Positions 9,391 through 62,280 of a DNA stretch of 64,000 bases are shown in pieces; position 1 is the first letter of the stretch; every line of letters begins with the position of its first letter. Below the pieces are notes generated by a model that saw only the letters and a list, made by a program, of their open reading frames with translations, ran no database searches and was not told the DNA's origin. Source of the stretch: an uncultured bacterium (GTDB lineage: Bacteria; Oederibacteriota; Oederibacteriia; Oederibacteriales; Oederibacteriaceae); contig OZ218778.1 of NCBI GenBank assembly GCA_965112635.1, positions 1,888,001-1,952,000 of the forward strand, given 5' to 3'. The position numbers and the translations under genes are program-made.

Positions 9391-9471
9391 AAAGCATCGC
9401 CAATCCCTGCGGATTTGCGATGTAACAGGCTGCTAAATGACCCTCTATTAGGGTTTTTCAGCAGCCTGTTA
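9391..9471. repeat. Dispersed ~80-bp double-hairpin element, copy 1
   Basis: CATCGC..AATCC/GGATT..GCGATG followed by TAACAGGCTGCT...AGCAGCCTGTTA; homologous to 25941-26020. Confidence 0.8.
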
Positions 9472-10473
9472 GAAATCAACGGTCAAAGAAAAGCGATGGG
9501 CCTCGCCTAAACTGGCATAAGGCACAAAGGCGTAATCAAAATGATAATACATCAAACCCAGTAAAAGGGAATAGCCAAAACCCGTCGTGAACATGAAAGG
9601 CAGGGAGGTCTGCTCGATCAAGCCGAGCCTGACTGCCAGGTCCTGCGCGCCCCAACGGGAGTTGTATTCCAATCCCAGATGGATCCCCAAATCCTGGCCA
9701 ATGAAATCATAGGAGGTTTCAGCGGAGGCCAGAATATTGCGGGGTTGTTTTGTTTCTTCCTGCTGGCCGCCGATGTTTTCCATGAGTTCTCCCAAGGCGA
9801 ACTTTTTAGCGATCCCTATCCTCAACAGCAAAGGCAGGGAATATCCGCCGAGCTCGGACCCGAGATTCTGCAGGGTCACGCCCAAGGAAGTTGCTTCGGC
9901 AAAAGGCCGGATGATGCCTCCCACATCAAAAGCGAAGCCGCTAAATCCCGCTCCCACAAAATCTTCGTGCAGCAGTTTAGCCGTGATGCCAGCGTGGAAG
10001 ATCTTGGAAAAGGTCGTGCCATAACTTAATTCGCCGAACAAGGCTGAGAAATTGAGGCTGTCCGCGCTGGGCACGAACATGCCCGGCAAAGGGAAGGACG
10101 GGTCCGTGGGCGTCATTTCATCGGCTTTGGAAACAGGGGAGGACCCCAGACGATTAACGCAAATGCTGAGGCCGCTATGGTTGGAAAGGGGCAGGGCATA
10201 GGCCGCGCTGTCAAAACTGGTGCCCAGAAACCAGTTGATATGGGTGAAAGAAAGTTCCTGGAAGGACAGGTCGCCGAGGCCGGCCGGATTCCAATAGGTG
10301 GACAAGGTGCCGCTGGCCACGGCGCAATAGGCGTCCCCCAGACTGGACGGCCGGGAACCGGTGGCTATCAAAAACTCTTCGCCAGCCACTGTGCCTGCCG
10401 CGAATGAATTCAGGGGATGCGTCAGAATAGAAAAAAGGATAAGGAATGCGATGGCTTGAGATTTTTGTGTCGT
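9469..10473 (-). CDS. PorV/PorQ-like (UPF0164/FadL-type) outer-membrane beta-barrel; probable ACG start at 10473
   Basis: GSRPSSLGDAY.AV......YWNPAGL and C-terminal HRFSLTVDF. The signal peptide lies upstream of the ORF-track start 10389. Confidence 0.8.
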   Translation of the reverse strand, partial: TTQKSQAIAFLILFSILTHPLNSFAAGTVAGEEFLIATGSRPSSLGDAYCAVASGTLSTYWNPAGLGDLSFQELSFTHINWFLGTSFDSAAYALPLSNHSGLSICVNRLGSSPVSKADEMTPTDPSFPLPGMFVPSADSLNFSALFGELSYGTTFSKIFHAGITAKLLHEDFVGAGFSGFAFDVGGIIRPFAEATSLGVTLQNLGSELGGYSLPLLLRIGIAKKFALGELMENIGGQQEETKQPRNILASAETSYDFIGQDLGIHLGLEYNSRWGAQDLAVRLGLIEQTSLPFMFTTGFGYSLLLGLMYYHFDYAFVPYASLGEAHRFSLTVDF

Positions 10474-10586
10474 AGGGCTAACCTCCTAAAATATCGGGTC
10501 ACTATCGGCAGAGAACCCAGGTATGGCTAGAGAATAATATTATACTACTGGTAAGAGAAGACCTGACCCAGGTTCACCATCATTCT

Positions 10587-11588
10587 TTAGAAGCTCGCTC
10601 CCAGGGATATTCTTTGGGCATCACCCAGCTGGTCCATAGGCACAAAAGCGTAATCCAGGGCATATGCGCTGCTGCCGATTTCCAGGGCAAGCCCCACCCC
10701 GCAGCTCAGCAGCAGGTAGCTGCTGGTGGACTTGGCTATACCGCCGCGCAAGGCCAGGATGGTGCTGCCCATCTTAGGGGCCCATTCCAGGCCCAAATGA
10801 AACCCATAGTCCTGGCTGTTCACCAGGTCGGTCAGGTCCAGGCTGGCCAGAATATCTTTGGCCGCCGTCTTATTCTCCGGGGCTAGGGCCAGCAGCTCCT
10901 CAATATCCGTATAGCTCATCCTTTTGGCTATTCCGGCCCTGGCCATGAGGGGAAACGCAAACCCGTCCAATCCCGTGCTCATATTCTGCACAACCAGACC
11001 GGCTATATCCGTATCCGATAGTCTGACCTGCGCTCCCAGATCTCCTGCAAACCCGGTTGCGCTGTCGTCCAGCAGGTTTTCCTGGATACATTTGACATTG
11101 GCGCCGACATTGAGCATGGGCAGCAGGCCCCAGCCAAACCCTATTCCGCCCATGATAGACCCTACACTGACCGTCTGGTTTGCAGGAGAGTATTGGCCGG
11201 ACAAGGGGTTATCAGGGCTAGGCAATGTTTCATTGGTGACCGTGATGTCCGGGATACCCAGACGGCTTACAAACAGGCTTAACCCACTCTTTTTGCCTAT
11301 GTTGACGGCATAAGCCACAGTATCTAGGGAGATATTCTGCATCCACATCAGGTGGGTCAGGGAGATATCCTGGTATTGGAGTCTAGCCAGGCCAGCCGGG
11401 TTCCAAAAAGGGGCGAGAGCGCCGGTGACCACGGCTGTGTAGGCCTCAGCCATACCGCTGGGACGGGAACCGACCCCCAGCAACAGCTCATCGCCCGCGG
11501 TCTCTCCGGCCCCAAAGCAGTGGCTCACCAAACACAGGGAACACAGGCAGATAAGAGTGATTATCTTATCAATACGATAGTGCCGCGT
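10587..11588 (-). CDS. PorV/PorQ-like outer-membrane beta-barrel; start uncertain (ACG 11588 or TTG 11531)
   Basis: GSRPSGMAEAYTAV.....FWNPAGL and C-terminal QRISLGASF; paralog of its neighbour. Confidence 0.8.
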   Translation of the reverse strand, partial: TRHYRIDKIITLICLCSLCLVSHCFGAGETAGDELLLGVGSRPSGMAEAYTAVVTGALAPFWNPAGLARLQYQDISLTHLMWMQNISLDTVAYAVNIGKKSGLSLFVSRLGIPDITVTNETLPSPDNPLSGQYSPANQTVSVGSIMGGIGFGWGLLPMLNVGANVKCIQENLLDDSATGFAGDLGAQVRLSDTDIAGLVVQNMSTGLDGFAFPLMARAGIAKRMSYTDIEELLALAPENKTAAKDILASLDLTDLVNSQDYGFHLGLEWAPKMGSTILALRGGIAKSTSSYLLLSCGVGLALEIGSSAYALDYAFVPMDQLGDAQRISLGASF

Positions 11589-13798
11589 GATGTCTGGCCT
11601 CCTCCTGAGACTAGGTAAAAATACACGCCTGGAGCGACTGCCTGACCGTTGTCATTGGTACCGTCCCAGGCGGCGTAGGTGGTGCTGGTGGCTATGCTTT
11701 TGACCAGCAGGGCTGACATGGTCCGTATCTCAATGGTCGAGCCAGCCGGGATATTGGCGAATTTCAGCTCATGGTTCAGGGCTGTTTTGACCCTAAAAGG
11801 ATTGGGATAGACCACCAGGCTGCCGATGCTCACCAGAGCCTTGTTGCTGGTCAGGGGGGAGTAGGGGGTTATCTGGCTGAGGATATCGTTGTAACTCATG
11901 CTAAAAGTGTTTGAAATGAACACCCCGGTTGGGTCATTGCTGTTGACCTTGGCTACAAGATTTTTGCTGACCGTGCTGTTGGGATTGACGTTGGCGATGG
12001 TCCAGCTATACAGGCCCGGCCCAAGCACGCTATATCCGCTGTCAGCGGAAACAAAGGTCATGGTGTTGGGCAGGGTGTCCCAGATAAGGACATTTTGGGC
12101 GGGACCGCCCCTGTTCTGACAGGAAAGGGTCCAGGTCACCTGGTCACCCTGGTTTGCTTTGGGAACATTGGAGGATTTGGCCAGGGTAAAGCTGGCCGGA
12201 AGAGGAGTTGGAGTATTGGTTGGAGTATAGGTGGAGGTAAAGGTATATGTGTTGGTAAAGGTCGGGCCCGCCGTGGACTCACCGGAATATTTGGTCAGGA
12301 AGCCCTGATTATCTAGGCCTTTGACCGTGTAGTAGTAAAAGGTACTTGTACAGGCATTAGTGGCGGTGGAGTCGGTATAAGTAGTGCCACCCACTAAAGA
12401 ACCGTTGATCTGTGCATAGCCAGTTCCCTCGGTCGTACTACGGTAAACATTGTAGCCTGAGATGCCGAAGGTGGAGATGGGGGGAGCAGACCAGGTGAGA
12501 GATACAGTAGAAGGACAAGTAATGGTGGCAACCAGACCAGAGGGAGGAACCAAGGTGCCCATGGCATTATAGAAGTTGATGCGGCCGTAGCCCAGGTACT
12601 GATTCCAGCCATTAGCATCATAGGCATGATCGGCGGCATCGACCTTATCCGCGGTTTTGGTGATGCGGGTGGAGACTTCATCATAGGACACGCCGTTGGA
12701 CATTAGGACAGCGGCCAGGGCACAAACATAGGGACACGACATGGATGTGCCGCCCCAGTTTGCGTATGCGGAAGGTCCTCCGATTTCAGTGGTCAAATCG
12801 CCTCCCGGGGCAGCGCATATGACATAAGAGCTATAGGTGGAATAGGTTGCCCATTCATCATGGCTTCCCGAGGCGGCTATAGCGAAAGCTATGCCATCTG
12901 AGGCAGGATAAATGAGTTCATAGGTTCCGCTATCCCCTGACGCGGCCATTGCAATATGATGGTCGGTGGAATAGGCATTGCTTATGGCTGTATCAACGCC
13001 GGAAGCGCTCACAAAACCCCAGCTGCAATTAAAGACCTGCGCGCCGTGCTGGGAGGCCCAGTCGATTCCCGCGATAGCGTTGGCCGCTGTCGCGTCCGTC
13101 CAATTGGTCGTGATTTTTACAGGCATGATCAGGCAATTCCAAGCCATGCCCGCTATACCCGTACTATTATTAACTTCTGCTCCCAGTAGTCCTGAGATCT
13201 CAGTGCCATGACCATGGATATCCGTAGTATCAGAACTATTGGAGATCACATTCCAACCCGGGACAATTTTATCCATCAGGTCCACGTGACTGGAATTTAT
13301 TCCGGAATCAATCACAGCAACCACGGTGGAGGTTAACCCTTTGGCCCAGGGCATCATGGCGGGAGTGTTCCAAGCTTTGTCTGTTTGGGTGATAGGAATC
13401 GGCCACAAGACTCCGCTCTGGTAATAGGTATCGTTGGGAAGGGAGTAGGGGGTATAGGCCGGATGGGCGTAATAATTAGGATAGGCGTTTTTGATCTTAA
13501 TATGTTTTTTCGCCTTCCCAGCATAGTCCAGAACATTTTTACCATGGGGTATTTTTAGGTGATAGATATCCAATCTGCCCAGTTTTTTTATAACTTCACA
13601 GCCTAATTCTTTGGCAATGGCACGCGCTTCTGATTCGGGGACTTTTCCTTTTTCAAATTCAATTATTATCTCCCCTTCCACGTAATCAGGTTTTTCTCCG
13701 GCATAAAGGGGGTGTAATAAAAAGGGGATTATCAAGAAAACAGCCAAAAAAATATACGATATTATTATTCCCAATAGTATGTATTTTTTCATTGGCAA
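11561..13798 (-). CDS. Secreted S8 (subtilisin-like) serine protease with propeptide, Fn3, short Thr stalk, DUF11 and C-terminal sorting-like domain
   Basis: Triad VAVIDSG / HGHGTEISG / GGTSMSCP; Fn3 VSLTWSAP..GYNVYRS..YYYTVKG; tail YPNPF...WDGTNDNGQAVAPGVYFY. Confidence 0.9.
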   Translation of the reverse strand: MPMKKYILLGIIISYIFLAVFLIIPFLLHPLYAGEKPDYVEGEIIIEFEKGKVPESEARAIAKELGCEVIKKLGRLDIYHLKIPHGKNVLDYAGKAKKHIKIKNAYPNYYAHPAYTPYSLPNDTYYQSGVLWPIPITQTDKAWNTPAMMPWAKGLTSTVVAVIDSGINSSHVDLMDKIVPGWNVISNSSDTTDIHGHGTEISGLLGAEVNNSTGIAGMAWNCLIMPVKITTNWTDATAANAIAGIDWASQHGAQVFNCSWGFVSASGVDTAISNAYSTDHHIAMAASGDSGTYELIYPASDGIAFAIAASGSHDEWATYSTYSSYVICAAPGGDLTTEIGGPSAYANWGGTSMSCPYVCALAAVLMSNGVSYDEVSTRITKTADKVDAADHAYDANGWNQYLGYGRINFYNAMGTLVPPSGLVATITCPSTVSLTWSAPPISTFGISGYNVYRSTTEGTGYAQINGSLVGGTTYTDSTATNACTSTFYYYTVKGLDNQGFLTKYSGESTAGPTFTNTYTFTSTYTPTNTPTPLPASFTLAKSSNVPKANQGDQVTWTLSCQNRGGPAQNVLIWDTLPNTMTFVSADSGYSVLGPGLYSWTIANVNPNSTVSKNLVAKVNSNDPTGVFISNTFSMSYNDILSQITPYSPLTSNKALVSIGSLVVYPNPFRVKTALNHELKFANIPAGSTIEIRTMSALLVKSIATSTTYAAWDGTNDNGQAVAPGVYFYLVSGGGQTSRGTIVLIR

Positions 13799-13893: not shown

Positions 13894-16800
13894 CTATTTA
13901 ATTATAGAAATTTTTAACGGTTTCTTTTGAGTTTGACCGCTGACCTGGGAATCGGCTTCTACAATTCCCACATAAAGACCGGCCGCAGTATTATTGACAT
14001 CCCAACCCAGGGTGGCAATGCCAGGCCCGGCTGCGGGCAAGCTGAGGGTGTTCACCAGCTCTCCCACCACATCATAAATTCTCACGGTCAGGCTGGATTG
14101 GTCCTGCAAAGCGACCTTGAACCATACCTTGTGGTCTGGGGTGGAGAGGTACGGGTTGGGGTAGACCGAAGCGTCCATAAACCCGCTTAAATTGGAGCTT
14201 AACACGGTCACACTTTGCACCAGCACATCGTGCTGGTGGTTGTAGGTCTGATCTATTTTGATCAAATACTCTCCGCTTTGCACATAATTGCCCAAGGCCG
14301 TGGTGCCGTCCCAGGTCAGGCGGGCTTGGTTCAAGGAGCCTAGCCCATCTGCCATTAACTGACCTGTGGAGGAAAAGATGTTTATCCCGATCGTGGTTGT
14401 CCCTGTGGGTTGATTGCTTATCTGCAGTAAATTACTGGTCAACTTCATGCTTCCCAATTGTCCCTGGACGAAATAGCTCTGGTAAAGCTGTTTGACCAAC
14501 TCTCCGCTGGTGGTGTAGATACTGACGGTCAAAAGGTCTCCTGACTTGAGCACGGTCAGGGGCATGACGACCGTATTGCCTTGCAGGCCGGGGATATCGG
14601 CTTTAAGCACATATTGCCCGCTGTCCACAAGGTAGCCCAGGTCGCTTTTGCCGTCCCAGGGGACATGGTAGATGATGCCAGCGCTTTTGATCTCGATATC
14701 AAAGAGGCCGGAGTTGGGGTCAAAGATGGTAGAGCCGCTGCCTGAGGAAAGCTGGATACCGCTAAACCCACCCAAGACAAGGACATTACTGAAGGTTTTG
14801 ACCACTTCACCGGCTTCGTCGTAGACCTTGAGCTCCAGGTTGGTCATCACCGGGGTATTGGTAGCGGTCACGGTGGCGGTATGGGTCTGGGTTTGGGTTT
14901 TGGACGGAGTCCAGGTCAGGGAAGAAGTCAAGGTCACTGAAGAGGTCACGGTAACAGTGGAGGTCAGAGTGATGGTGGCTGTATTTGTCATTGTTGAAGT
15001 AGGCAGAGGTGTATAGGTGGTAGTGGTCGTGGCTGACTCAGTGAAAGTGTTGGTATTGGTTGAGGTGGGTAAGGGGGTAGGTGTAGTTGTAGGCGTCCCT
15101 GTTTCAGTGGCTGTGTAAGTAAAGGTGAAGGAGTATAAAGTCGTAACCGTGGCCGTAGGGGTCGCTGTATTGGTAGAGGTGCTAGTTAAAGTTATCGTAG
15201 CTGTAACCGTGATGGTCGCTGTTGATGTTGGTGTATTGGTAGCAGTACTAGTTGGCGAAATGGTATGGGTTGGTGTAGCCGTACCCGTGTTTGTGCTGGT
15301 GTAGGTAGAGGTGGCGGTGCTGGTGTTGGTATTGCTGACGCAGGGAGTCACGTTTTCCACGTACACATCGCCGCAGTAGGGCCTTCCCAGCTCCTCGCCA
15401 AGGCCGGCTCCCATGACCAGGGAATTGGTGCCATTGCCGGTCAGGTCGCCTATAAGCACGTTGCCTCCTCCTACTTCTTCCCCGCCGGTGCCAAGGGAAA
15501 CTCCGTAATAACGCATGGTATAGAACGCAGGGTTTGCTATATCCCTTATTTGGCCTTTGCCGGCGGTCCATGGTCCGGTGGTCACCCACACCACGCCATT
15601 TTCCCAAATGTTATTTGGTTTATTAGATAAGGCGCCGCTTCCGGCGTCGCCAGCTCCTATGGCCAGACTCGGCACCGGAGTACAGCTAAAACAAAGTTGG
15701 CCGATGGCCATATTGTCCCCAAAATCAGTAGCATAAGCTCCAAATGCGCCATCGCCGTCTAAGCGGATGTTGAAATTGTTTACAAGATTCAAGTCTACAT
15801 CATTGCCATTACCTAAAGGGAAGTTAGTGGGGTTGTCATTGGAATAGACAATATAGACTGAGCCATTTCCATTCCTTCCTTGGCTGTTTTCTCCCGCCGC
15901 ACCCATGGCCAAATCCAGATTGCCATTTAAAAATCCCAGGGCTATCCCATCGCCAAGGTCTCCTGGTGCCGCGGTATAGGGCATTTCCTCTGAGGCATTG
16001 GCGCTTTGGGCCCCATCAAAACGCACGTTACAGTTATTAATATTATTCATGTCCACCATGACCCCCGGTCCGCCACCTATGGGTCCGTAGATCACATAGA
16101 CTGCACCATTGTTTACCTTGCCGTTCGTGGAGGTGCCGGGTGCGCTCATGATGAGATCAGGATGGCCGTCTGTATTACCTCCAGCGCCCCCTCCCACGTC
16201 AGCTATGGCTACCTGCTGGCCCATGCCAACCTCAGCCGCAGCGCCGACGTAGAGGTGGTCATAGTTATTGACATTATTCAGATCCAGGATTGCGGCTGGA
16301 CCCGCGGGCAGAGGGCCGTCTATCGTGAACACTGACCCGGAAATGAATCTGCCGGCAAAATTGTTATAGAAAATATCTCCGATGGCCAGGTCATTGATGT
16401 TGTCGCCGTTGATGTCCCCTATGGCGAATGAGGCGGCTCCGGCGTAATTATTGACGATCTCCACGTTATAGTTGTTAGGATTGGCGAAGCTCACCACTGC
16501 CCCAGGGCCGCCCGCAAACGGTCCGTATTTTACCCATACCGCCCAGCCGCCCCCCATAACCAGGTCGTTCACATTGTCATTGTTCAGATCGCCGATGGCT
16601 AAGGCAAACCCGAGGTTGGCCCCCCCGCCGGGGCCGTCGTAACGGATATCAAAATTATTGAATATATTGAGGTCGGGCTGGTTGGCCATGGTGAGAGGGA
16701 AATTGACCAGCCCGCCATAGATGATATAGACCGAGCCGCTGCCACCGCCGTTGTAGCTGGCATTGCCATCCCCTATGACCAGGTCAGGGATGCCGTCTCC

Positions 16801-17550
16801 GTTGAGGTCGCCAATGGCCATGCCTCCCTGTGTCCCTTCCTCACCAAAGCTCAAAGTCCAATCGGCTTGCGCACCGACGAACTGCTCGTTGTAGTTGGCT
16901 GGAACAGCCAGATCAACATCCGGATCAATGACCGCCTCACCCTTGGAGCCTACAGAGACCTTTAATTGCAGGTCGATGATGCCGTCCCCTTTTTGCTCGT
17001 AGGCCAGCAACCGGTGGTCCATTTTGGCCACATCAGACCAGCTGAAGTACCCAACGGCTTGTTTATAGCCTCCCCGCACAGGGAACGTCAGAGAGGCTCC
17101 CTTCATGACAGGCATGACATAGCGGCTTAGACCGGGATAGTCCTTGGCCGGCCGTTCCAATTCTTCGTGGGCGCGAAAGTCCAGGGCCTCTTTTTTCTCC
17201 GGCAGGGCGTACTCTTTGCCCTCATAAACAACGCGGTCCGTGTCGATCTGATAGTAGAGGTGGAGCGTGGTTGTCTTGTCTTTTTGAGTGGGATTTTTGA
17301 CCCGGATAGTTTGTTTTAACGACCGTTTTTGGGTCGCCGGCGATGCTTTGCCCAGGTCGTAGGTCACTTTGACCCTAAGCGCAGGATCATCACAGACAGC
17401 ACGGAAATCTTTAAATCCCTGTTTCAGGTCCTCTCGTAAACCGTTACTTTCGAACCCTGCCCCGGAAACTAGTTGGCTCATGCCGCCTACTAGGAGGAGG
17501 GTGCCTATGGTCAGGACTATCGTGAAAAAAGTTGTCGACGATTTATGCAA
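13894..17550 (-). CDS. Secreted FG-GAP (integrin-alpha-like beta-propeller) repeat protein with Thr stalk, two FlgD-Ig-like domains and C-terminal sorting-like domain
   Basis: Repeated AIGDLNGDG..DLVIG and GSVYIIYG motifs; TxT stalk; WDGKSDLG, WDGT, YPNPY...KISIIK. Confidence 0.85.
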   Translation of the reverse strand: MHKSSTTFFTIVLTIGTLLLVGGMSQLVSGAGFESNGLREDLKQGFKDFRAVCDDPALRVKVTYDLGKASPATQKRSLKQTIRVKNPTQKDKTTTLHLYYQIDTDRVVYEGKEYALPEKKEALDFRAHEELERPAKDYPGLSRYVMPVMKGASLTFPVRGGYKQAVGYFSWSDVAKMDHRLLAYEQKGDGIIDLQLKVSVGSKGEAVIDPDVDLAVPANYNEQFVGAQADWTLSFGEEGTQGGMAIGDLNGDGIPDLVIGDGNASYNGGGSGSVYIIYGGLVNFPLTMANQPDLNIFNNFDIRYDGPGGGANLGFALAIGDLNNDNVNDLVMGGGWAVWVKYGPFAGGPGAVVSFANPNNYNVEIVNNYAGAASFAIGDINGDNINDLAIGDIFYNNFAGRFISGSVFTIDGPLPAGPAAILDLNNVNNYDHLYVGAAAEVGMGQQVAIADVGGGAGGNTDGHPDLIMSAPGTSTNGKVNNGAVYVIYGPIGGGPGVMVDMNNINNCNVRFDGAQSANASEEMPYTAAPGDLGDGIALGFLNGNLDLAMGAAGENSQGRNGNGSVYIVYSNDNPTNFPLGNGNDVDLNLVNNFNIRLDGDGAFGAYATDFGDNMAIGQLCFSCTPVPSLAIGAGDAGSGALSNKPNNIWENGVVWVTTGPWTAGKGQIRDIANPAFYTMRYYGVSLGTGGEEVGGGNVLIGDLTGNGTNSLVMGAGLGEELGRPYCGDVYVENVTPCVSNTNTSTATSTYTSTNTGTATPTHTISPTSTATNTPTSTATITVTATITLTSTSTNTATPTATVTTLYSFTFTYTATETGTPTTTPTPLPTSTNTNTFTESATTTTTYTPLPTSTMTNTATITLTSTVTVTSSVTLTSSLTWTPSKTQTQTHTATVTATNTPVMTNLELKVYDEAGEVVKTFSNVLVLGGFSGIQLSSGSGSTIFDPNSGLFDIEIKSAGIIYHVPWDGKSDLGYLVDSGQYVLKADIPGLQGNTVVMPLTVLKSGDLLTVSIYTTSGELVKQLYQSYFVQGQLGSMKLTSNLLQISNQPTGTTTIGINIFSSTGQLMADGLGSLNQARLTWDGTTALGNYVQSGEYLIKIDQTYNHQHDVLVQSVTVLSSNLSGFMDASVYPNPYLSTPDHKVWFKVALQDQSSLTVRIYDVVGELVNTLSLPAAGPGIATLGWDVNNTAAGLYVGIVEADSQVSGQTQKKPLKISIIK

Positions 17551-20600: not shown

Positions 20601-21179
20601 CACATAACTATAGGGAACATTAGGCGGAGCAGGCATTATATAATACATCCACTGTCCTATGCCTGGCGTATCGTCAATAGGTGTGCCCCAGGTTGAATCA
20701 TCAAAACCCGGCATCATCCAATTGGCAGGCGGAACCGCCAGCTGACCGGCGCAGCCGCCGGGTGGATTTGTGCAACCACAACCTCCGGGAACATACAAAA
20801 ATTTTACGTTGGCGTCAGGATTGCTATAAATGACCACTGTGGGGGCGTCTGAATAATGGACAGTCAAGCGAAAAGTCACGGTCTGCGGACCGGAAGTATT
20901 GGGCGGATTGTCAACAGCAATGAGGTTTGTTTGGTTGGGAAGGAAGTCGTGCAAGTCAAGAGTACCGTCCGCGGTGGAATAACTAGTGATTTGGTCAAAG
21001 TTCCAACCAGTTGTCCCGCCATGAATTCCGTTAATGTAAAAATCTGCGTGGTCGTCTCCGGCTATTTCCAGGTCAGCTGAAACAATGTAGGCAATTGTTT
21101 GGCGGGGAACAAACAGTGATAGCAAACATAGAAAAATAATTTTCTTAAAAAATCTTTCTAGTACCTTTTGTTTAAGCAT
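17616..21179 (-). CDS. Large secreted protein: jelly-roll-like head, split DUF11, ~370-aa Thr stalk, two FlgD-Ig-like domains, C-terminal sorting-like domain
   Basis: Signal peptide; GDDHADFYING..PGFDDSTW head shared with 52141 and 54193; YPNPY...KVIIIR. Confidence 0.85.
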   Translation of the reverse strand: MLKQKVLERFFKKIIFLCLLSLFVPRQTIAYIVSADLEIAGDDHADFYINGIHGGTTGWNFDQITSYSTADGTLDLHDFLPNQTNLIAVDNPPNTSGPQTVTFRLTVHYSDAPTVVIYSNPDANVKFLYVPGGCGCTNPPGGCAGQLAVPPANWMMPGFDDSTWGTPIDDTPGIGQWMYYIMPAPPNVPYSYVPYLGNGPSAWGLINNNCGDMNLYREYFFFPGSDIDLSKASDVTVSATGGTVNYTFTMGSFDEDASTVTVYDTVPAGMAFVSATGGGTYNPVTNLVSWTFTLSGSVTFNYADQYISSVINAPGWTNPGNTIGAPDGNFATLTPGNTGWFQIGPSGVVNQNQYVIAGVMFHSTIQGVNGGDGLVNPLYFNYSMDGTNNGFLGAPADIMRETFDGNTDDGYYDATADTNWTWADLNNLRVSYYNTVSGPADASAVDSCEVVVKYYLPSVPPFGFAAMVTTTACPGLLDNTGTLQGTGLVATTSNDAQVALYCAPTNTSTSTATDTATSTSTSTCTPTITTTATASPTGSSTCTSTITNTITSTSTSSATATVSPTASSTRTSTNSATATATMTVSPSATSTSTATITATATATMTVSPSATSTRTATNTATSTATMTVSPSATDTSTATITGTSTTTMTVSPSATSTNTATNTATSSATLTSSPSLTATYTNLFTSTNTYTVTASPTASGTYTATNTFTTTATLTVSPSASATYTSTNTPTPTATLTVSPSASATFTFINTSTVTATLTASPTGSATITQSNTQTITLTTTYTPTYSITNTPSSTQTPSLTITSSLTNTVTLTKTFSYTFTNTGTASNTATPSCTSTPSNTSTPPFSPTQTLTWTNTVTPSKTLTSSCTPTITPPVLNVDLVIYATNGEVVKTLGWVPIFGDLSDLTITLGGSGSLMEDSGVPLEILLTTKKGQWQIPWDGTNDLGAMVQPGDYILKSQVTQFGKATTFTNSVIVTSLGNHLKVDIYTTSGELVKEIYQGYSTSGQLEGISLTNNLLLTGPGQNTTVGVGALGDNGLYLSDSNGTLAPGRILWDGTNSLGNLVQNGEYILKADQVYNGRIVTYSKSITVLVSSSNPGFDAKAYPNPYREMGSQTIYFKVDINQAASIRINIYNVAGNLIMTLTAAGSGTLAIPWNVGKMSAGLYLAAVEADTPAANYRTITKVIIIR
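19200..19480 (-). repeat. Intragenic 66-bp tandem repeat (22 aa, ...TMTVSPSAT...)
   Basis: GTGGCAGA(G/C)GGGCTGACGGTCATCGTGG on the + strand at 19216, 19282, 19348 and 19414. Confidence 0.9.
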
Positions 21180-46308: not shown

Positions 46309-46325
46309 GGAGGGGAGGCTTGAGA

Positions 46326-47627: not shown

Positions 47628-47630
47628 CCG

Positions 47631-54192: not shown

Positions 54193-57081
54193 ATGCACTT
54201 AGAAAAGAAGGATAGCCCTATGCAAGGGATGAAGATATTCGGGCAACTCATCATTAAACCTTTATTGGTCCTAATCCCTCTCTCTTTTTTATCCCCCGCC
54301 CTGGCCAGTGCCGGAGGATATCTGCGGGCCGTTGACCTGGAACTGACCGGGGATGATTATATACAGGGTGCTTATGTCAACAACACTCTGATAGGTGGTA
54401 CTCCCTGGAGAAACGACACCATGTTCTTTTATTCCACGGTGGACGGGACCCTGCCCATCAATATTTTTATGCCTGGCGTCACCAACCTTTTGGCTGCCAA
54501 TAATCCACCTGAGTCAGGGGGGCCCAATGATATTACCTACCGGTTGACCTTTCATTTTTCGGACGGGACCGAGACCTATGCCTGGAGCAACCCTGACGCC
54601 AACTCATTTATGTTTCAGGCTCCGAACGCTGGGGCAGTTCCTCCTGGATGGATGAACATTGGATTTTCCACGGCGGGTTGGACAAACCCCTCGCCGGCTC
54701 TTTCGTACGCGGCCGCGCACCAGTGGTATTATGTCATTCCCGATGCCAATAATGCGCCTTATGGCTATGTGCCCTATTTATCGGACAGCGGTCCCAGCGT
54801 TCACAATAATCCTGGTGGTGTGGTGGATCTATTCAGGACGAATTTTACCTTTCCCGATTCCAATGTGGCTCTCGAGAAGAGCTCGAACGTGACCGGCACG
54901 GCGGTAGGAGGCACGATTGCCTACACCATTACCCTGGGCGACTTTGGGGCCAGCATCGGCGACGTCACGGTCTACGATACCCTTCCGGCCGGCACGACCA
55001 TCATCCCCGGTTCGATAATCGGAGGCGGGTCCTATAATCCCGTGACCAACATGGTTTCCTGGAACTTTAACGTCCCCAACGCGGTCACCATGAATGATGT
55101 CACTACGAATATAAGTTCTGTGGTCAGCGAACCAGGGTGGATAGACACAAGCCCTTCGTCAGCTATTGGAGTGACTGATAATGCCTGGGATGCTTTTTTT
55201 TCCGGCCAGCCTGGATGGTTCCAGGTGGCCCCGCCTGTTGTGGCTAACGAAAACAATTATGTCATTGCCGGAGTTTTGTTTTACAACACCGTCGTGGACG
55301 CCGGCCCTGCCGCTGGCGGAAGTCCTGTCGGGATGGACCCCCTGGACTTTAACTATTCCGTGGACGGGACCGATAACCCTTTTCTGGCCTCACCCCCGAA
55401 TATCATGCGCGAGGCCGGCGACCCCACCGGCTATTGGGGTGTGGGTCCGGGGACCCAGTCGTTAGGTTATTATGACGCCACCTCGGACAGGAACTGGACC
55501 TGGGCGGATGTGAACAATCTCAGGGTGAGCTACACTTCCATTGCTCAATTCCAGCAGGAGTTGGTGGCCCTGGACGGCATGGAGATGGTCGTCCAGTATT
55601 ACCAGCCTTCGGTCCCGCCGTTCGGGTTCAGCGTCACCGTGGACAATCAACCCTGCCCCTCCACGCTCCATAATACGGCATCGGTTGCGGGGTCCAAGAT
55701 CATCACCACGACTTCCAATGACGCGCCCGTGGACGTCCTGTGCGCCATCACCGGCACGCCCACCGCCACGTTCACGGCCACGGCGACCGCCACACCCACG
55801 GCGACGGCCACGGCCACGGCTACTCCCGCCCCCGGCACTTCCACTTTTACGAGCACGGATACCTCCACGGGCACGCCTACCCCGACCTACACGGTGGGCC
55901 CTTCACAAACCGCTACGAACACAAATACCGCCACTGCAACCGGCACCGCGACCGCCACGAGCACCAACACCCCGCCTCCCACGAACACGATGTCCGTCAC
56001 CTATACGCCGACCATCACCTGCACTTCCACGGTCACGCTCACTTCCTCCAATACTTTCACTTCTTCCATGACCTCGACGGTTTCCTATACCTCGACGGCC
56101 ACGGCCACGAACACGCCCCAGACGGTCGTGATGCAGTTGAAGCTGTATAACAGCTCAGGCGAGATCGTCAAGACATTCAACAACCTTGTTTTTGTCCAGA
56201 TGGGTTTTGATTTCTCCAAGGTGCAGATCGACCCGGCCGGTGGGTCGGACCTCTTCGACCCGAGCACCGGTCTTTTCAACATCGAGGTGAAATCCGGAAG
56301 TTCGGTCTTTACCATCCCGTGGGACGGCAAGAACGACCTGGGTTACACGGTGGACAGCGGGGGATATTTGTTCAAAGCCGAAGCCCAGGGGCAGAACAAC
56401 ACGATCACGATGCCCGTGACGGTCTTGAAATCGGGCGACCTGACGACCATCTGCGTCTACACGACCAGCGGGGAACTGGTGAGGCAGCTTTACCAGAACT
56501 ATCTGGTTCAGGGTCAGCTCGGCAGCATGAAACTGAGCGCCAACGTGCTGACAGTGAACGACAAGAACAAAAAGACGGTGAATATCGGCATCAATTCTTT
56601 GTCCGAGAGCGGGTCGGCTTTGATGGACCAGATCGGACCCCTGGACCAGACCCGCATCTTTTGGGACGGCACCAGTTCCACGGGCGGTTTTGTGCAGAGC
56701 GGGGAGTATTTGATCAAGATAGACCAGATCTACAATGGCTCTCATTACTCGACTGTGCAGAGCGTCACGGTGCTGGTGTCCTCGTTCAGCGGGTTCATGG
56801 ACGCCTCGGCCTATCCCAACCCCTACATCTCCACCCCGGACCAGAAGGTGTGGTTCAAGGTCAGCTTGCACGACCAGTCGGACGTCAAGATCAGGATCTA
56901 CAACGTGGTGGGAGAACTGGTCAACACGCTCTTCGCGCCGGGAGCCGGAGCGGGTTCGGCCAGTCTGGGATGGAACGTGGGAGGGGCTGCCAGCGGGCTT
57001 TACGTGGGGGTCGTGGAGGCCAAATCCCTGGTCAGCGGCGAAACGCAGAAAAAGCCCGTCAAGATCACCCTCATCAAATAG
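54193..57081 (+). CDS. Secreted protein: head X, Thr stalk, two FlgD-Ig-like domains and C-terminal sorting-like domain
   Basis: Head paralogous to 52141; tail paralogous to the 59329 and 17550 genes; YPNPY...KITLIK. Start may be 54220 or 54229. Confidence 0.85.
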   Translation: MHLEKKDSPMQGMKIFGQLIIKPLLVLIPLSFLSPALASAGGYLRAVDLELTGDDYIQGAYVNNTLIGGTPWRNDTMFFYSTVDGTLPINIFMPGVTNLLAANNPPESGGPNDITYRLTFHFSDGTETYAWSNPDANSFMFQAPNAGAVPPGWMNIGFSTAGWTNPSPALSYAAAHQWYYVIPDANNAPYGYVPYLSDSGPSVHNNPGGVVDLFRTNFTFPDSNVALEKSSNVTGTAVGGTIAYTITLGDFGASIGDVTVYDTLPAGTTIIPGSIIGGGSYNPVTNMVSWNFNVPNAVTMNDVTTNISSVVSEPGWIDTSPSSAIGVTDNAWDAFFSGQPGWFQVAPPVVANENNYVIAGVLFYNTVVDAGPAAGGSPVGMDPLDFNYSVDGTDNPFLASPPNIMREAGDPTGYWGVGPGTQSLGYYDATSDRNWTWADVNNLRVSYTSIAQFQQELVALDGMEMVVQYYQPSVPPFGFSVTVDNQPCPSTLHNTASVAGSKIITTTSNDAPVDVLCAITGTPTATFTATATATPTATATATATPAPGTSTFTSTDTSTGTPTPTYTVGPSQTATNTNTATATGTATATSTNTPPPTNTMSVTYTPTITCTSTVTLTSSNTFTSSMTSTVSYTSTATATNTPQTVVMQLKLYNSSGEIVKTFNNLVFVQMGFDFSKVQIDPAGGSDLFDPSTGLFNIEVKSGSSVFTIPWDGKNDLGYTVDSGGYLFKAEAQGQNNTITMPVTVLKSGDLTTICVYTTSGELVRQLYQNYLVQGQLGSMKLSANVLTVNDKNKKTVNIGINSLSESGSALMDQIGPLDQTRIFWDGTSSTGGFVQSGEYLIKIDQIYNGSHYSTVQSVTVLVSSFSGFMDASAYPNPYISTPDQKVWFKVSLHDQSDVKIRIYNVVGELVNTLFAPGAGAGSASLGWNVGGAASGLYVGVVEAKSLVSGETQKKPVKITLIK

Positions 57082-57120: not shown

Positions 57121-59286
57121 ATGGGCATAGTAATATCTAAATCGAAAATTTATTTTATTGCCGTCACCATGGCCGCCCTTTTTGCTGTCCCTGTTTTTGC
57201 CTATGTGCCGGCTTGCCCTCAATTTTCCATAGCCTGTAAAAGCTCGGAACTGCCAGGCGGCAACTGGGACCATCAGCCCATTTTCCCTGAAATAGGGGAC
57301 GAGGGAATGGTCCATATCACCGGCTCTGGCGCTGGACCCGTGACCGCGGGTCAAGCCGGCACGGCGACTTTTAGCCCCTTTTGGCCTGTGGGCAATCCCA
57401 CGGATGGCGTGTATTTTGGATTGGCCAGCTCGGGTCCCAACAACAACTCAGCCTGGTGGGAGTGGAACGGGGCGGATGTGGGCAACTGGTTCAACGGAAC
57501 CTGTGGCGGTGAACTGACCTTTAATATCTGCTCCAATTACACCTGGGCCCAGCGGCAGGCAGGGTCCGGGGGAGGCACTGTATTCGGGGTCACCGATAAC
57601 GGGACCCGCCAGATATTCGGTTTTTCCATTAACGCGCCTGCGGGGAACAACCTGTCCGTTTCCTACTCCACGGGCCAGAACGGTTCCAGCAATTGCGGCA
57701 CGGTTCCCGGGGGTGACGCCAACTTCGGGGTGGGCAAAGCGCTACAGGTCAGAGTGGAGTGGAACGCTTCACCCGTGGTGATCACCAACTACCTTTACAT
57801 CAACGACGTTTTGATCTGCTCCGGCCTGTATTTGCCGGTCACCCCGAGCTGGGGCGCTAACTCATATTTCAACCTGGGAGCGAATACAGGAGGCTACAAC
57901 AGCTGCTTGGACAGCATTGCCGATTTTGAGTGCAGCACCTTCACCGGCTGCAGTTGTCTCAATACGCCTACCGTCACCCAGACCCCCATCCCTTACCCAA
58001 CTCCGTGGCCGAATACGGCCTGCCCCGACCTTTCTACCTGGAAATTGGTGGGCACTGCCGCTTATGTGGCCGGGAACAACCAGATCAACTTGTGCCAGAT
58101 GCAAAACGGCCCGGGCGGGGCCTGGGCGCCCACCTGCATAGACCTGACCAAGAATTTCGCCTATTCCTTTGAGCTGAATTTTGGGACTCCGGCTGACACT
58201 CCTCCGACCGGCGCGGACGGCATCTGCTTTGTCCTGCAGAACGACCCGGCTGGGACGGGCGCATTGGGCGGGGGCGGAGGCGGCATAGGCTTCGCGGGCC
58301 TCGGCGCGACAGGCGGCGCCCTGGCCGCCGAATTTGACACCTATACCAACGGCTGGGACATATCATTTCCGGAGGACCATACCGCCATTGACCTTAACGG
58401 GGACGTGACCCATACCATTCCGGCTCGCTATCCCGTGTGGGCCAGTTTGACCCAGCCTGACATCAAGGACGGCAATGACCATCTGGTCAGGGTGCTCTGG
58501 GACGCGACCAATCATAACCTTTTTATTTACTTCGACGGCAGCCGGCGCATCGTCTATAACTCCGACATCGTCAATGCCGTCTTTGGGGGGACCCACTGCG
58601 TTTACATGGGACTGACCAGCAGTATCGGCGGAAGTTATACCAATTTGCAGATGTTCCATTGCGTGTGCGGCACCGTGACGCCCACCAACACCTGGACCAT
58701 TTCGCCGACCAGCACGGCCACGCCGACCATCACTCCCACCTCGACCATAGGACCTTCCGGGACCCCTACCAGCACGGCCACCCCTACCTTGACCCAGACG
58801 ACCACCTCTACCGCCACGCAGACCACTACCATCACCCAGACCTTCACGAATACCTTTACCTTGACCTTTACAGCGACCTTCACCTTGACTTTGACGCCTT
58901 CCCAGACCCTGACCAGCAGCCAGACCCTGACCTCGTCCCTGACCTTCACGCCCACCCTGACCAGCACCCCTTCCGGGACCAGCACGCCCGTACCGCCGAT
59001 CATTGTGTATCCCAACCTCATCAACCCTGACAAGCACCAGTCCGTCAAGTTCTGGGGATTGCCCGCGTACAGCAAGGTCACCATTTACGACCTGAGCACG
59101 GAATTCGTGTGGCGAAGCGCCCTTTCCGGCGGCAACGAGCTGGAGATCATCTGGCCCGGATGTAACCAGAGCGGTATACCCGTGGCCCAGGGCATTTATT
59201 TCTACATTATCGAGATGTGGAACGGCCCGGACCACAGTGTGCTTAATAAGAAGATGGGCCATATCGGAGTCCTCAGGGGCGGTTGA
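57121..59286 (+). CDS. Secreted protein: head Y (includes a legume/L-type lectin-like domain), Thr stalk, short C-terminal sorting-like domain
   Basis: GADGICFVLQN, AEFDTY.N, DH.AI..NG, H.VRV.WD, Y.G.T.S.GG; tail paralogous to 52141. Confidence 0.85.
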   Translation: MGIVISKSKIYFIAVTMAALFAVPVFAYVPACPQFSIACKSSELPGGNWDHQPIFPEIGDEGMVHITGSGAGPVTAGQAGTATFSPFWPVGNPTDGVYFGLASSGPNNNSAWWEWNGADVGNWFNGTCGGELTFNICSNYTWAQRQAGSGGGTVFGVTDNGTRQIFGFSINAPAGNNLSVSYSTGQNGSSNCGTVPGGDANFGVGKALQVRVEWNASPVVITNYLYINDVLICSGLYLPVTPSWGANSYFNLGANTGGYNSCLDSIADFECSTFTGCSCLNTPTVTQTPIPYPTPWPNTACPDLSTWKLVGTAAYVAGNNQINLCQMQNGPGGAWAPTCIDLTKNFAYSFELNFGTPADTPPTGADGICFVLQNDPAGTGALGGGGGGIGFAGLGATGGALAAEFDTYTNGWDISFPEDHTAIDLNGDVTHTIPARYPVWASLTQPDIKDGNDHLVRVLWDATNHNLFIYFDGSRRIVYNSDIVNAVFGGTHCVYMGLTSSIGGSYTNLQMFHCVCGTVTPTNTWTISPTSTATPTITPTSTIGPSGTPTSTATPTLTQTTTSTATQTTTITQTFTNTFTLTFTATFTLTLTPSQTLTSSQTLTSSLTFTPTLTSTPSGTSTPVPPIIVYPNLINPDKHQSVKFWGLPAYSKVTIYDLSTEFVWRSALSGGNELEIIWPGCNQSGIPVAQGIYFYIIEMWNGPDHSVLNKKMGHIGVLRGG

Positions 59287-59328
59287 TAGCCTCTCCAGGC
59301 ATTTTTTGACAAACTTAAGGAGAAGATC

Positions 59329-62280
59329 GTGGTCAAAATGGCAGTCGTCATTCTTGGATGCATAGGCCTGACCCTCCTTGTTGTCCTGGCAACGGTCCCC
59401 CTCCAAGCCGGCTGCACGGAATTCCAGGTCAATGGCAATTCCATGGAAGTACCTGACGGCGATTACAACGGGAACATCATTGTGCCAGAGGTGGGTCCCT
59501 TGGGCACGGTCCAAATAGACGGCACGGGAGGCGGGCCGGTCAATACTCCCGCGCAAGAGGGATTTATCAAATGGGACCCTTTTGACGGGGTGGGCAATCA
59601 GGACGGTTTTACCTTTGGCCAGGGCGGGGGAGGCACCAACCTTAACGCCTGGTGGAGCTGGCAGGGAGCGCAAGTGGGGGATATTTTCAGCACCTGCGGG
59701 GGCGATATCAACTTTGATATCAAATCGGATTTCACCTGGTTGTTCCGGGAGGTTGGCGCGGGCGGGGGTATTACCTTTGATGTCAGCGATGACGGGAACC
59801 GGTCTCTTTTTACATACTCCATGAGCGGCACTGCCTGCACTCAACAATGTTTGCTCGGCGGCTATACGGCTATGGGCACCGCTGGCAACGGCGTTATCCA
59901 GGGCGCGTTCGCTTTTTTCGGCAATATCGGCGATGTCATGCATATGGATATACGCTGGGATACCAATAACATTTATTTATACGTTAATGGCAATCTGTTG
60001 GACACCACTCCCATAGCCGCTCTTAACCCGCCCATCACCTGGGGCCCCAACTCCTACTTCAATATAGGAGCGGGGGCGGAATTCGCCCCCTGGATGGGAC
60101 GCTTTTGTTTTCAGGACACCGTTGCTGATTTTAAGATAACTTCAGCGGCCGGGTGCCCCTGCATCGGCCCGGATATGCCCCAGCCCACTCCCACCCCTTT
60201 TCTCATCCCGGATAATTTTTGCCCTGACCTGTCCACTTGGAGGATCGTCGGCACAGCCCAAAAGGTGCCTGCGAATAATCAGATCAACCTGTGCGAGACG
60301 GACCACGGTCCGGGAGCGGCCTGGGCGCCCACCTGCATCAATCTGACCCAGAACTTTGCTTTTACTTTTTATGAAAATTTTGGCGTGCCTGCTGACAATC
60401 CTCTCACCGGCGCGGACGGCATCTGCTTTGTCCTGCAGAATTCCGGCCCTAATGCCATAGGGGGCGGCGGAGGAGGTATTGGCGCTGCCGGAGTGCCTCT
60501 TGGCGGGATCAGCCCGTCCGTTATCGCGGAAATAGACACCTATGACAACCTGGGTTGGGATCCCGGCTTTGACCACGCGGCCATAGACCTCAATGGCGAT
60601 GCGGAGCACCAGGGCCACGCGCCGGTGTGGGCCAGCATGGTCCAGCCGGATATCAAGGACGGCTTGGACCATATCTGCCGTTATCTTTGGGACGCAGGGA
60701 CAGATACTTTGTATGTGTATTTTGACGGAAGCCTGCGCCTGACCTATACCAACCCCAACATCATTACCGCCCTGGGGACCAACTGCCCCTATTGGGGCCT
60801 GACCAGTTCCATTGGCGGGAGCTATACTAATTTGCAGATGTTCCATTGCATTTGCGGGACCCCGACCAACACGAACACGGCGACTGCTACCAATACCGCC
60901 ACGGCCACGGCTACGGCGACCGCGACTCCGACCGTGTCGCCGACCGCCACGGCTTCGCCTTCGGCGACCGCCAGCCCCACGGTCACCAACACCCGGACCG
61001 TGACCAACACCGGAACGGCTACCTATACCGGCACGGCTACAGGGACCGCCTCGAACACCTTTACCATCACCGTGACCGCCACCCAGACCGATACGGCCAC
61101 ATCCACGGACACGCCAACCTGGCAGTTCTCCCCGACCACCACCTTTACGGCCACCCAGACCTATACCGCAACCGTGACGGATACTTCCTCGCTGACCGCC
61201 ACCATCACGCAGACCTCCACGGTCACGGTGACCAGTTCCACGACCCTGACCTCTTCCCTGACCTCCACCCCTTCCAAGTCCTTTACCCAGACCTGGACCG
61301 CCACCGTGACCGCCACCAGCACGCCGGTGATGACCGACCTGAAGTTAAAGATCTACAATGAGGCCGGGGAGGTAGTCAAAACTTTCAATGATGTGCTGGT
61401 CCTGGGGGCCTTGAGCGGCATCCAGCTCGATTCGGGAAGCGGCACCGTGCTTTTTGACCCCAGCAGCGGCATCTTTGACATCGAGGTCAAGAGCCAGGGG
61501 ATCGTGTACCATGTGCCGTGGGACGGCAAGAGCGACCTAGGAAATACCGTGGACAGCGGGGAATACGTGCTCAAGGGAGAGGTGCCCGGGCAGAGCTCGA
61601 CCGTCACCATGCCCGTGACGGTCTTTAAGGCCGGCAATCTCCTGACCATCGGCGTGTATACCACCAGCGGCGAACTGGTCAAGCAGTTGTATGAGAGCTA
61701 CCTGGTCCAGGGCCAGCTCGGCAGCATGAAACTGAGCGCCAATCTGCTGACCGTGAACGACAAGAATAAAAAGACCGTGAATATCGGCATCAACTCCTTG
61801 TCCGAGAATGGGGCGGTTATGGCGGACCAAATAGGGCTCCTGGACCAGAACCGGATCTTCTGGGACGGCACCAACAGCCTGGGCGGTTTCGTGCAGAGCG
61901 GAGAATACCTGGTCAAGATCGAGCAGACCTACAACCACAATCATGACGTGGTGGTGCAGAGCGTGACGGTGCTGGTGTCCTCGTTCAGCGGGTTCATGGA
62001 CGCTTCGGTGTATCCCAACCCGTACATCAGCACGCCGGACCAGAAGGTATGGTTCAAGGTCACCCTGCAGGACAATGCCGACGTCAGAGTGAGGATCTAT
62101 GACGTGGTCGGGGAACTGGTCAACACCCTCAGCAGTCCGGGGGCGGGCCCCGGTCCGGCCAGCCTGGGGTGGAACGTGGGCGGGTTGGCCAGCGGGCTTT
62201 ACGTGGGCATCGTGGAGGCCAAGTCCCTGGTGAGCGGAGAAACCCTGAAAAAACCTTTAAAAATATCGATTATTAAGTAA
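59329..62280 (+). CDS. Secreted protein: head Y (L-type lectin-like), Thr stalk, two FlgD-Ig-like domains and C-terminal sorting-like domain
   Basis: Head paralogous to 57121; tail paralogous to 54193; YPNPY...KISIIK. Confidence 0.85.
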   Translation: MVKMAVVILGCIGLTLLVVLATVPLQAGCTEFQVNGNSMEVPDGDYNGNIIVPEVGPLGTVQIDGTGGGPVNTPAQEGFIKWDPFDGVGNQDGFTFGQGGGGTNLNAWWSWQGAQVGDIFSTCGGDINFDIKSDFTWLFREVGAGGGITFDVSDDGNRSLFTYSMSGTACTQQCLLGGYTAMGTAGNGVIQGAFAFFGNIGDVMHMDIRWDTNNIYLYVNGNLLDTTPIAALNPPITWGPNSYFNIGAGAEFAPWMGRFCFQDTVADFKITSAAGCPCIGPDMPQPTPTPFLIPDNFCPDLSTWRIVGTAQKVPANNQINLCETDHGPGAAWAPTCINLTQNFAFTFYENFGVPADNPLTGADGICFVLQNSGPNAIGGGGGGIGAAGVPLGGISPSVIAEIDTYDNLGWDPGFDHAAIDLNGDAEHQGHAPVWASMVQPDIKDGLDHICRYLWDAGTDTLYVYFDGSLRLTYTNPNIITALGTNCPYWGLTSSIGGSYTNLQMFHCICGTPTNTNTATATNTATATATATATPTVSPTATASPSATASPTVTNTRTVTNTGTATYTGTATGTASNTFTITVTATQTDTATSTDTPTWQFSPTTTFTATQTYTATVTDTSSLTATITQTSTVTVTSSTTLTSSLTSTPSKSFTQTWTATVTATSTPVMTDLKLKIYNEAGEVVKTFNDVLVLGALSGIQLDSGSGTVLFDPSSGIFDIEVKSQGIVYHVPWDGKSDLGNTVDSGEYVLKGEVPGQSSTVTMPVTVFKAGNLLTIGVYTTSGELVKQLYESYLVQGQLGSMKLSANLLTVNDKNKKTVNIGINSLSENGAVMADQIGLLDQNRIFWDGTNSLGGFVQSGEYLVKIEQTYNHNHDVVVQSVTVLVSSFSGFMDASVYPNPYISTPDQKVWFKVTLQDNADVRVRIYDVVGELVNTLSSPGAGPGPASLGWNVGGLASGLYVGIVEAKSLVSGETLKKPLKISIIK

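Follow-up and report, generated by a model that had tools for sequence, protein, structure and literature searches.

Threonine-stalked, probably surface-located proteins with type IX sorting-domain tails, and PorV/PorQ-family barrels, in an uncultured bacterium

The 64,000-base stretch analysed here (contig OZ218778.1, positions 1,888,001 to 1,952,000 of the forward strand, G+C ~54%; called the window below) comes from an uncultured bacterium placed in the Oederibacteriota. It carries eight genes for secreted-looking proteins that end in a domain recognised by type IX secretion system (T9SS) sorting-signal models or resembling the C-terminus of PorZ, together with three genes for outer-membrane barrels of the PorV/PorQ family. 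Scores against family models and predicted folds indicate that these tails and barrels are homologous to T9SS parts, not merely analogous to them. We consider it probable that the eight are T9SS-type surface proteins (the cargo), that the three barrels receive them, and that a translocon of the SprA type is encoded elsewhere. This is no new kind of machine; standard models already name these proteins. All that is particular to the system in the window is that the cargo have a Thr-X stalk and that their tails form three classes, and the stalk also occurs elsewhere.

Eight stalked proteins and their C-terminal domains

The open reading frame (ORF) list of the window holds eight complete cargo ORFs, and their starts are those that an earlier note on this DNA, made from the letters alone, had named for eight proteins sharing a signal, a head, a Thr-X stalk and a tail. 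A six-frame scan of the window with a profile of the last 85-95 residues of the cargo returned exactly eight full tails, and the proposed plan is thus borne out. All eight run from a basic-then-hydrophobic N-terminus, judged by eye as a basic segment followed by a hydrophobic one, through a head and a Thr-rich stalk to a C-terminal domain that starts with YPN (Table 1). The fourth ORF opens at 35702, and its signal-like N-terminus begins at the ATG at 35609. One further match of the same scan, partial, fell on an internal immunoglobulin-like (Ig-like) domain in ORF 1-732. This is a gene of which the window includes the 3' part only (1-735, + strand); its product has an internal FlgD-type Ig-like domain and ends in a hydrophobic C-terminal segment, not in a YPN tail. 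At the other edge, 63126-63998 (+) is the 5' part, again cut, of another secreted-looking protein with no family match, whose product could be a ninth cargo.

Several heads are named by Pfam. The subtilase gives 114.6 bits with Peptidase_S8 and further matches to the Fervidolysin prodomain and DUF11, and its Asp, His and Ser motifs are readable in the sequence. The lectin at 57121-59286 reaches 108.2 bits with Lectin_L-type_dom (cut-off 78.3) and that at 59329-62280 reaches 97.2 bits; the FG-GAP protein gives 58.7 bits with FG-GAP and 56.7 bits with FlgD_ig, and the protein at 34014-35609 gives 39.5 bits with DUF11. An N-terminal head domain without a family match is common to the proteins at 17616-21179, 52141-54138 and 54193-57081. 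An Atlas search with one cargo head returned a single match at 0.75, below lead level.

The tails had been described as a single shared domain. They do all open with YPN, a motif that the internal Ig domains lack, and all eight stand at the extreme C-terminus, a few residues from the stop; they fall, however, into three classes. Those of class A are preceded by two or three internal Ig-like domains, those of class B belong to the two genes that each lie directly upstream of a barrel gene, and those of class C have an ending unlike that of A and B. Scored alone, six of the eight reach the TIGR04183 cut-off (23 bits), with 23.1-29.6 bits, and one, that of 17616-21179, also reaches PF18962 (30.4 against 27). 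TIGR04131 and FlgD_ig, which the earlier note had named beside TIGR04183, recognise none: the former has no match among the tails at E-values up to 1, and the latter gives lone tails 26.6 bits at most, under its cut-off. Among NCBIfam models, the tails of classes B and C match the C-terminus of PorZ best, with 28-41 bits (37.6 for the subtilase tail and 41.4 for that of 34014-35609). Three features by which a type A sorting domain is recognised are found here, namely the profile score (in six of the eight tails), the C-terminal position together with a signal-like N-terminus, and the Ig-like fold (one tail modelled). For a type B sorting domain they are a profile score and a PorP/SprF-type partner, and this combination is not found in the window.

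The tail that was modelled, the sole one folded, is that of the subtilase. With 59 aligned tails, its model (predicted local distance difference test, pLDDT, 95.6) is an Ig-like β-sandwich, the Ig-like C-terminal domain (CTD) expected beforehand. Its best match in the PDB is PorZ (5m11; E-value 4.6e-6, template modelling (TM) score 0.82, root-mean-square deviation 2.2), followed by PorU (6za2), the CTD of mirolase (8qb1) and the substrate CTDs in 8gl8 and 8glk.

Thr makes up 31-44% of the residues in the stalks, compared with 4.4% in ten other proteins encoded in the window that are not cargo, and the Thr residues alternate: pairs at positions i and i+2 far outnumber pairs at i and i+1 (110 against 8 in the longest stalk, that of 17616-21179). 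Lengths range from 39 to 379 residues, the subtilase having the shortest. Within 17616-21179, at 18895-19549 (-), the DNA is repeated in tandem, in units of 66 and 132 bases (2.4-4.5 copies, 79-88% matches) that code for part of the longest stalk, which suggests that stalk length shifts through gain and loss of repeats.

When the last third of a class-A cargo protein was used as query, 23 proteins were returned, namely three from the window, four paralogues outside it on the same contig (2,876,006 bases) and 16 from other contigs, the last at 30% identity or less. A Thr-rich stalk is present in all 23, including 16 of 16 from other contigs, in a word-based candidate list that may be biased toward stalks, as the query took in the last stalk residues. 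Among 63 tail-bearing ORFs of the fetched barrel loci described below, only one has a Thr-X stalk, a protein of FCPU426 (locus L029). The Thr-X stalk is therefore not unique to this genome.

Barrels of the PorV/PorQ family

The motif WNPAGL occurs in three ORFs, all on the minus strand (9469-10389, 10587-11531 and 32886-34007). Their products form one starred clade in the tree described below and are thus paralogous, as had been proposed; barrels 1 and 3 are 55% identical. Against NF033709, the model of the PorV/PorQ family (cut-off 90 bits), barrel 1 scores 102 bits and barrel 2 scores 93.1 bits, so that two pass, and the piece of barrel 3 ahead of its frameshift stays just below at 87.4 bits. 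The frameshift, of one base near 33073-33075, puts the last ~40 residues in another frame, and the terminal Phe that had been ascribed to all three barrels is reached in barrel 3 only across it. Since an intact form exists in the protein library (P0153, 332 residues, 99.3% identical over 297 residues), the frameshift is either a variant or an assembly error.

The starts of the other two barrel genes are unusual. In barrel 1 a signal-like segment lies upstream of the GTG at 10389 that opens the listed ORF; ahead of this segment, an AGGAGG (10487-10482) is followed, after 8 bases, by an ACG (10473-10471). In barrel 2 the signal-like segment extends back as far as an ATT (11573-11571), which lies in overlap with the last bases of the subtilase gene. 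No ATG, GTG or TTG lies ahead of the signal-like segment in either gene, and the odd starts may reflect rare start codons, coupling or errors.

We modelled barrel 2 with AlphaFold2 and 83 aligned relatives, and obtained a confident barrel (pLDDT 93.3, predicted TM score 0.88). The best PDB match is the PorV chain 8gl6_F (E-value 1.7e-11, TM score 0.69) and the next is another PorV chain, 6h3i_F (TM score 0.69), followed by barrels of the FadL type (FadL, TodX, TbuX). Among the closest known systems are the SprA-PorV-substrate complexes of Flavobacterium johnsoniae (8gl6, 8gl8, 8glk, 6h3i), whose PorV chain is nearest to the window barrel and whose bound CTDs resemble the subtilase tail; unlike them, the window has no SprA, and its barrel is only 16-17% identical to PorV in the structural alignment.

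Folding barrel 2 together with the subtilase tail, as the earlier note had suggested for barrel and tail, gave a complex score of 0.83, against 0.00 for the best of three controls. Of 157 solved complexes, 116 come up to the mark applied, and of 215 mismatched pairs 2 do so, counts that hold only roughly here since our own alignments were used. At least 92% of the contacts are common to the runs, with a partner pLDDT of at least 86. Because PorV-CTD complexes have already been solved, this pass may be memory of the model, and it speaks for likeness and not for binding.

The same note had seen in these genes an analogous or divergent system that has a cargo grammar of its own. That they are linked to T9SS is borne out, and the relation is one of homology and not analogy, given TIGR04183 in six of eight tails, NF033709 in two barrels and folds that match PorV, PorZ and PorU. 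The separate grammar was overstated, as existing models already recognise both tails and barrels.

Gene order around related barrels and in the window

An exhaustive search with barrel 2 found 5029 representatives at E-values of 0.001 or less, 1079 at 1e-10 or less and only three at 1e-30 or less, these being barrel 2 itself, the intact barrel 3 and one protein at 31% identity; a word-based homologue search found nine proteins only. A search of genome loci from a 7-row barrel alignment gave 557 confirmed relatives, of which the best 80 loci were kept. Their barrels are 23-33% identical and all come from other genomes. The titles of these loci include, within the Fibrobacteres-Chlorobi-Bacteroidetes (FCB) group, Bacteroidota, Ignavibacteria, Zixibacteria, Marinimicrobia, Calditrichota, Latescibacteria and others, and outside it Poribacteria, Elusimicrobiota, Aerophobetes, Riflebacteria, Firestonebacteria, Desantisbacteria, Stahlbacteria and FCPU426.

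A tail-like domain is present on 67 ORFs, in 44 of the 80 loci. In 29 of the 58 loci that have a same-strand ORF upstream of the barrel, that ORF bears a tail, against a background of 61 in 760 ORFs of at least 250 residues. The tree built from 83 barrels has two halves, both starred. The window trio belongs to the half with 47 rows and makes up a single starred group there; the rows nearest to it by path are a barrel from Aerophobetes and one from Eisenbacteria, with no supported sister. The tail gene lies directly upstream in 22 of 38 loci of this half against 4 of 34 in the other (three tail-upstream loci are absent from the tree). These last four are all from Poribacteria, and in one of them (L007) the upstream ORF passes the PorU model with 432.6 bits against 420, the only such pass among the 32 upstream or downstream ORFs scanned. 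In FCB loci, the large ORFs that carry a tail and lie upstream of a barrel mostly have no family match. A literature search found no description of the tail-gene-then-barrel pair and no on-point account of T9SS in candidate phyla; PMC12204202 mentions T9SS only through PorE, and on FCPU426 only community surveys were found.

Some loci show further regularities. A conserved gene run that ends in the barrel is found at ~3-10 kb in each of six FCB-group loci (L037, L052, L069, L039, L040 and L080), in the order of a TonB-dependent-receptor-like gene (~950 residues), a tail-bearing protein (835-1290 residues, to which Pfam gives no family or at most a weak match to the tail) and the barrel. In the FCPU426 locus (L029 6437-12073) a 1163-residue protein has, like the window cargo, a signal-like N-terminus, heads, two long Thr-X stalks (606 residues) and a tail, with the barrel gene directly next. 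Its tail is ~32-35% identical to the window tails. Its barrel ORF, unlike those of the window, is fused to extra C-terminal domains, continuing ~380 residues past the barrel. A sister relationship between this barrel and those of the window finds no support in a tree, where it sits on a long branch and does not group reliably with them. In the Eisenbacteria locus L028 (10764-15113) a large S8 subtilase-like ORF lies right beside the barrel, the only other subtilase-barrel neighbour among the 80 loci.

A PilB/GspE-type ATPase gene lies at 7590-9005 (-) in the window, ~460 bases downstream of barrel 1, and three loci that are close relatives of one another (L074 12355-14097, L077 and L042), two of them from Riflebacteria, have a PilB ATPase ~1.5 kb downstream of the barrel. 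The PilB/GspE ATPase and the one S8 subtilase are the only non-barrel, non-tail genes of the window that recur beside barrels, and so small a number of cases carries little weight.

The cargo genes have envelope genes around them, among them those for LpxB, an MsbA-like exporter, a Kdo transferase, Lnt, an O-antigen-ligase-like protein and a LolA-like protein besides the PilB/GspE ATPase. The LolA-like gene (62362-63081, +) follows directly after the last cargo gene; it scores 30.9 against 30 with LolA_like of Pfam and only 23 against 83 with LolA3 of NCBIfam. Between the cargo groups, the glycosylation set comprises glycosyltransferases of the C fold (GT-C: TMEM260-like, PMT_2 and YfhO), a family 2 glycosyltransferase (GT2) like polyprenyl-phosphate hexose synthases, a flippase-like protein, a WecA-like enzyme, a B12 radical S-adenosylmethionine enzyme, an epimerase and a family 4 glycosyltransferase (GT4). 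To guess from gene names and position, this set could modify the Thr stalks or lipopolysaccharide. A tRNA-Gly at 7501-7575 is confirmed; a 97-base tRNA-Lys called by ARAGORN in a DinB-like ORF (22050-22146, +) finds no confirmation from Rfam at the gathering score and is probably false.

Table 1. Barrel genes, cargo genes and glycosylation genes of the window, with the class of each tail and its TIGR04183 score (bits) when scored alone
Feature	Position	Strand	Description	Tail class	TIGR04183, tail alone
Barrel 1	9469-10473	-	PorV/PorQ-family outer-membrane barrel; listed ORF start GTG 10389		
Barrel 2	10587-11573	-	PorV/PorQ-family barrel; listed ORF start TTG 11531		
Cargo, S8 subtilase	11561-13798	-	Prodomain, fn3, DUF11, short Thr-X stalk; directly upstream of barrel 2	B	24.3
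Cargo, FG-GAP	13894-17550	-	FG-GAP repeat head, 177-residue Thr-X stalk, internal Ig-like domains	A	24.1
Cargo	17616-21179	-	N-terminal head without family, DUF11, 379-residue Thr-X stalk, Ig-like domains	A	29.6
Barrel 3	32969-34007	-	PorV/PorQ-family barrel, signal-like N-terminus, frameshifted		
Cargo	34014-35609	-	Head without family, 111-residue Thr-X stalk, DUF11; directly upstream of barrel 3	B	29.1
Envelope glycosylation gene set	37062-51976	+	Between cargo groups; Pfam/NCBIfam names		
Cargo	52141-54138	+	Shared head, DUF11, 85-residue Thr-X stalk	C	12.1
Cargo	54193-57081	+	Shared head family, 136-residue stalk, Ig-like domains	A	23.9
Cargo, lectin	57121-59286	+	L-type lectin head, 115-residue stalk	C	14.1
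Cargo, lectin	59329-62280	+	L-type lectin head, 171-residue stalk, Ig-like domains	A	23.1

Proposed export route, alternatives and meaning

The reading that we prefer can be set out as a route. Each cargo would cross the inner membrane via Sec, and its C-terminal Ig-like domain would be the signal for export across the outer membrane through an SprA-type translocon encoded elsewhere, after which the CTD would be passed on to a PorV/PorQ-like barrel. The PorZ-like tails of class B would escape cleavage and dock in the barrel encoded next to them, in the manner of PorZ on PorQ and of PorU on PorV. Those of class A would act as type-A signals, with the barrels as shuttles, and would then perhaps be processed or anchored. 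With the C-terminus fixed at the membrane, the Thr-X stalk would keep the head (protease, lectins, FG-GAP propeller or DUF11) off the surface.

Docking of the class-B cargo in the neighbouring barrel is suggested by their PorZ-like tails, by the adjoining barrel genes and by two known systems. In Porphyromonas gingivalis, according to PMC10947112, PorQ holds PorZ at the surface, the attachment complex to which they belong also includes PorU and PorV, and neither PorU nor PorZ has its CTD cleaved off. A PorV/PorQ-family barrel thus holds a surface protein by an uncleaved Ig-like CTD there, as may be the case here, and the best match of the class-B and class-C tails to the PorZ C-terminus, like the nearness of the tail model to PorZ and PorU, points the same way. 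The window differs from P. gingivalis in that the heads encoded next to its barrels are those of a subtilase and of a DUF11 protein in place of PorZ or a C25 sortase, that its barrels miss the PorQ and PorV equivalogs, and that the cargo and barrel genes are adjacent. The other parallel is the type B substrates, which PMC12618676 describes as often gene-linked to their cognate shuttle. In F. johnsoniae, too, a type B cargo gene adjoins the gene of its outer-membrane partner (PMC12618676); that partner is PorP/SprF, for which the Pfam scans of the window gave no match, and the partner in the window is of the PorV/PorQ family.

As to the translocon, we scanned 26 further large ORFs in the barrel loci for its parts. 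An SprA match of 241.6 bits (cut-off 200) was found in L025, a locus with a tail gene and two tandem barrels of the window clade. A second SprA match, of 155 bits and thus below the cut-off, was found in the Aerophobetes locus L019, which also has a window-clade barrel, and a PorU2 match was found in one Bacteroidota locus. Since an SprA-like gene shares a locus with a same-clade barrel in two genomes, a conventional translocon encoded elsewhere in this genome is favoured, and these matches make its presence rather likely.

A number of observations weigh against this reading. Family scans of the window (Pfam on 43 ORFs, NCBIfam on 34 of them) gave no match to SprA, PorU, PorK-N or PorP/SprF, in agreement with the earlier note as regards SprA, PorK-N and PorU; the PorU and PorZ models match only tails. 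In L025, unrelated housekeeping genes stand between the SprA match and the barrels, so that the linkage is loose. The window barrels miss all equivalog models, with ~16 bits against 250 for PorV (NF033710), 32-42 against 220 for PorQ (NF033711) and 42-57 against 325 for PorV2 (NF052325), and all three of their genes depart from the standard gene model, two having no canonical start and one being frameshifted. Both class-C tails miss TIGR04183 (12.1 and 14.1 bits against 23); scored alone with CHU_C (PF13585, cut-off 27), that of 52141-54138 just reaches the cut-off with 27.6 bits and that of 57121-59286 misses it with 22.6 bits. When the tails are scored within the whole proteins, none reaches TIGR04183 or PF18962, all staying just under the cut-offs. 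Finally, the literature consulted, PMC12398890 among it, describes T9SS as confined to Bacteroidota or the FCB group, and the present lineage is not evidently FCB. The window contains no set of marker genes; for its LpxB, one relative is 68% identical and the rest 48% or less, and the nearest named ones (46-48%) come from several groups (Deltaproteobacteria, Sumerlaeota, Hydrogenedentes and Syntrophales).

Some of these points would be expected if the display needed barrels only, that is, if there were no SprA and the PorV/PorQ-like barrels, with the β-barrel assembly machinery or another route, both brought the tails to the surface and held them there. The window without any T9SS core gene, the missed PorV, PorQ and PorV2 equivalogs, the place of the barrels in a clade apart from the PorU-linked ones, the overlap or near abutment of the cargo-barrel gene pairs and a lineage not placed in FCB would all suit such an arrangement. 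We nevertheless find it improbable. A FadL-like barrel of ~300 residues would, as such barrels go, have no evident path for folded proteins of 560-1200 residues; SprA is matched beside same-clade barrels in L025 and, below the cut-off, in L019; the clade of the window barrels includes many FCB genomes; and little can be read from what 64 kb out of 2.88 Mb of contig do not contain. Another possibility, which we think no likelier, is a T9SS variant outside FCB in which PorQ/PorV-family barrels have multiplied to serve as dedicated, gene-linked anchors of cargo whose PorZ-like tails stay uncleaved, the S8 subtilase and its barrel replace PorU-PorV as processor of the class-A tails, and the neighbouring GT-C and polyprenyl-phosphate-sugar set adds O-glycans to the stalks in the periplasm. 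If true, it would be a T9SS with a serine-protease sortase and mucin-like stalks.

Loci from many phyla have a tail gene ahead of the barrel, 29 of 58 in all where the background is 61 in 760, and this is hard to reconcile with a merely coincidental neighbourhood, in which the tails would be generic structural or adhesive Ig domains of the FlgD type and the barrels unlinked FadL-like transporters of hydrophobic compounds. Such a view could draw on the matches of FlgD_ig to tails and internal domains alike, on FadL, TodX and TbuX coming close behind PorV in the fold search, and on tail scores barely above the TIGR04183 cut-off. Yet the barrels pass the PorV/PorQ family model and have PorV as top fold match, all eight tails are strictly C-terminal with a YPN start that is absent from the internal Ig domains, and the fold search ranks PorZ, PorU and T9SS substrate CTDs above or alongside FlgD. 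We regard coincidence as very unlikely, behind the other explanations.

On the reading that we prefer, that of T9SS-type surface proteins received by PorV/PorQ-family barrels, a T9SS cargo signal and the shuttle family are found together in a poorly sampled lineage, though the literature consulted treats T9SS as a system of Bacteroidota or FCB. The interest is for specialists and lies in the lineage not being evidently FCB, in the widespread tail-gene-then-barrel pair and in the Thr-X stalk. The design of head, stalk and tail offers a model for how adhesins, lectins and a protease may be held out from the cell surface, and the recurrence of a tail protein followed by a barrel suggests a rule by which many such barrels would be private anchors for the cargo encoded next to them, extending the case of PorQ and PorZ.

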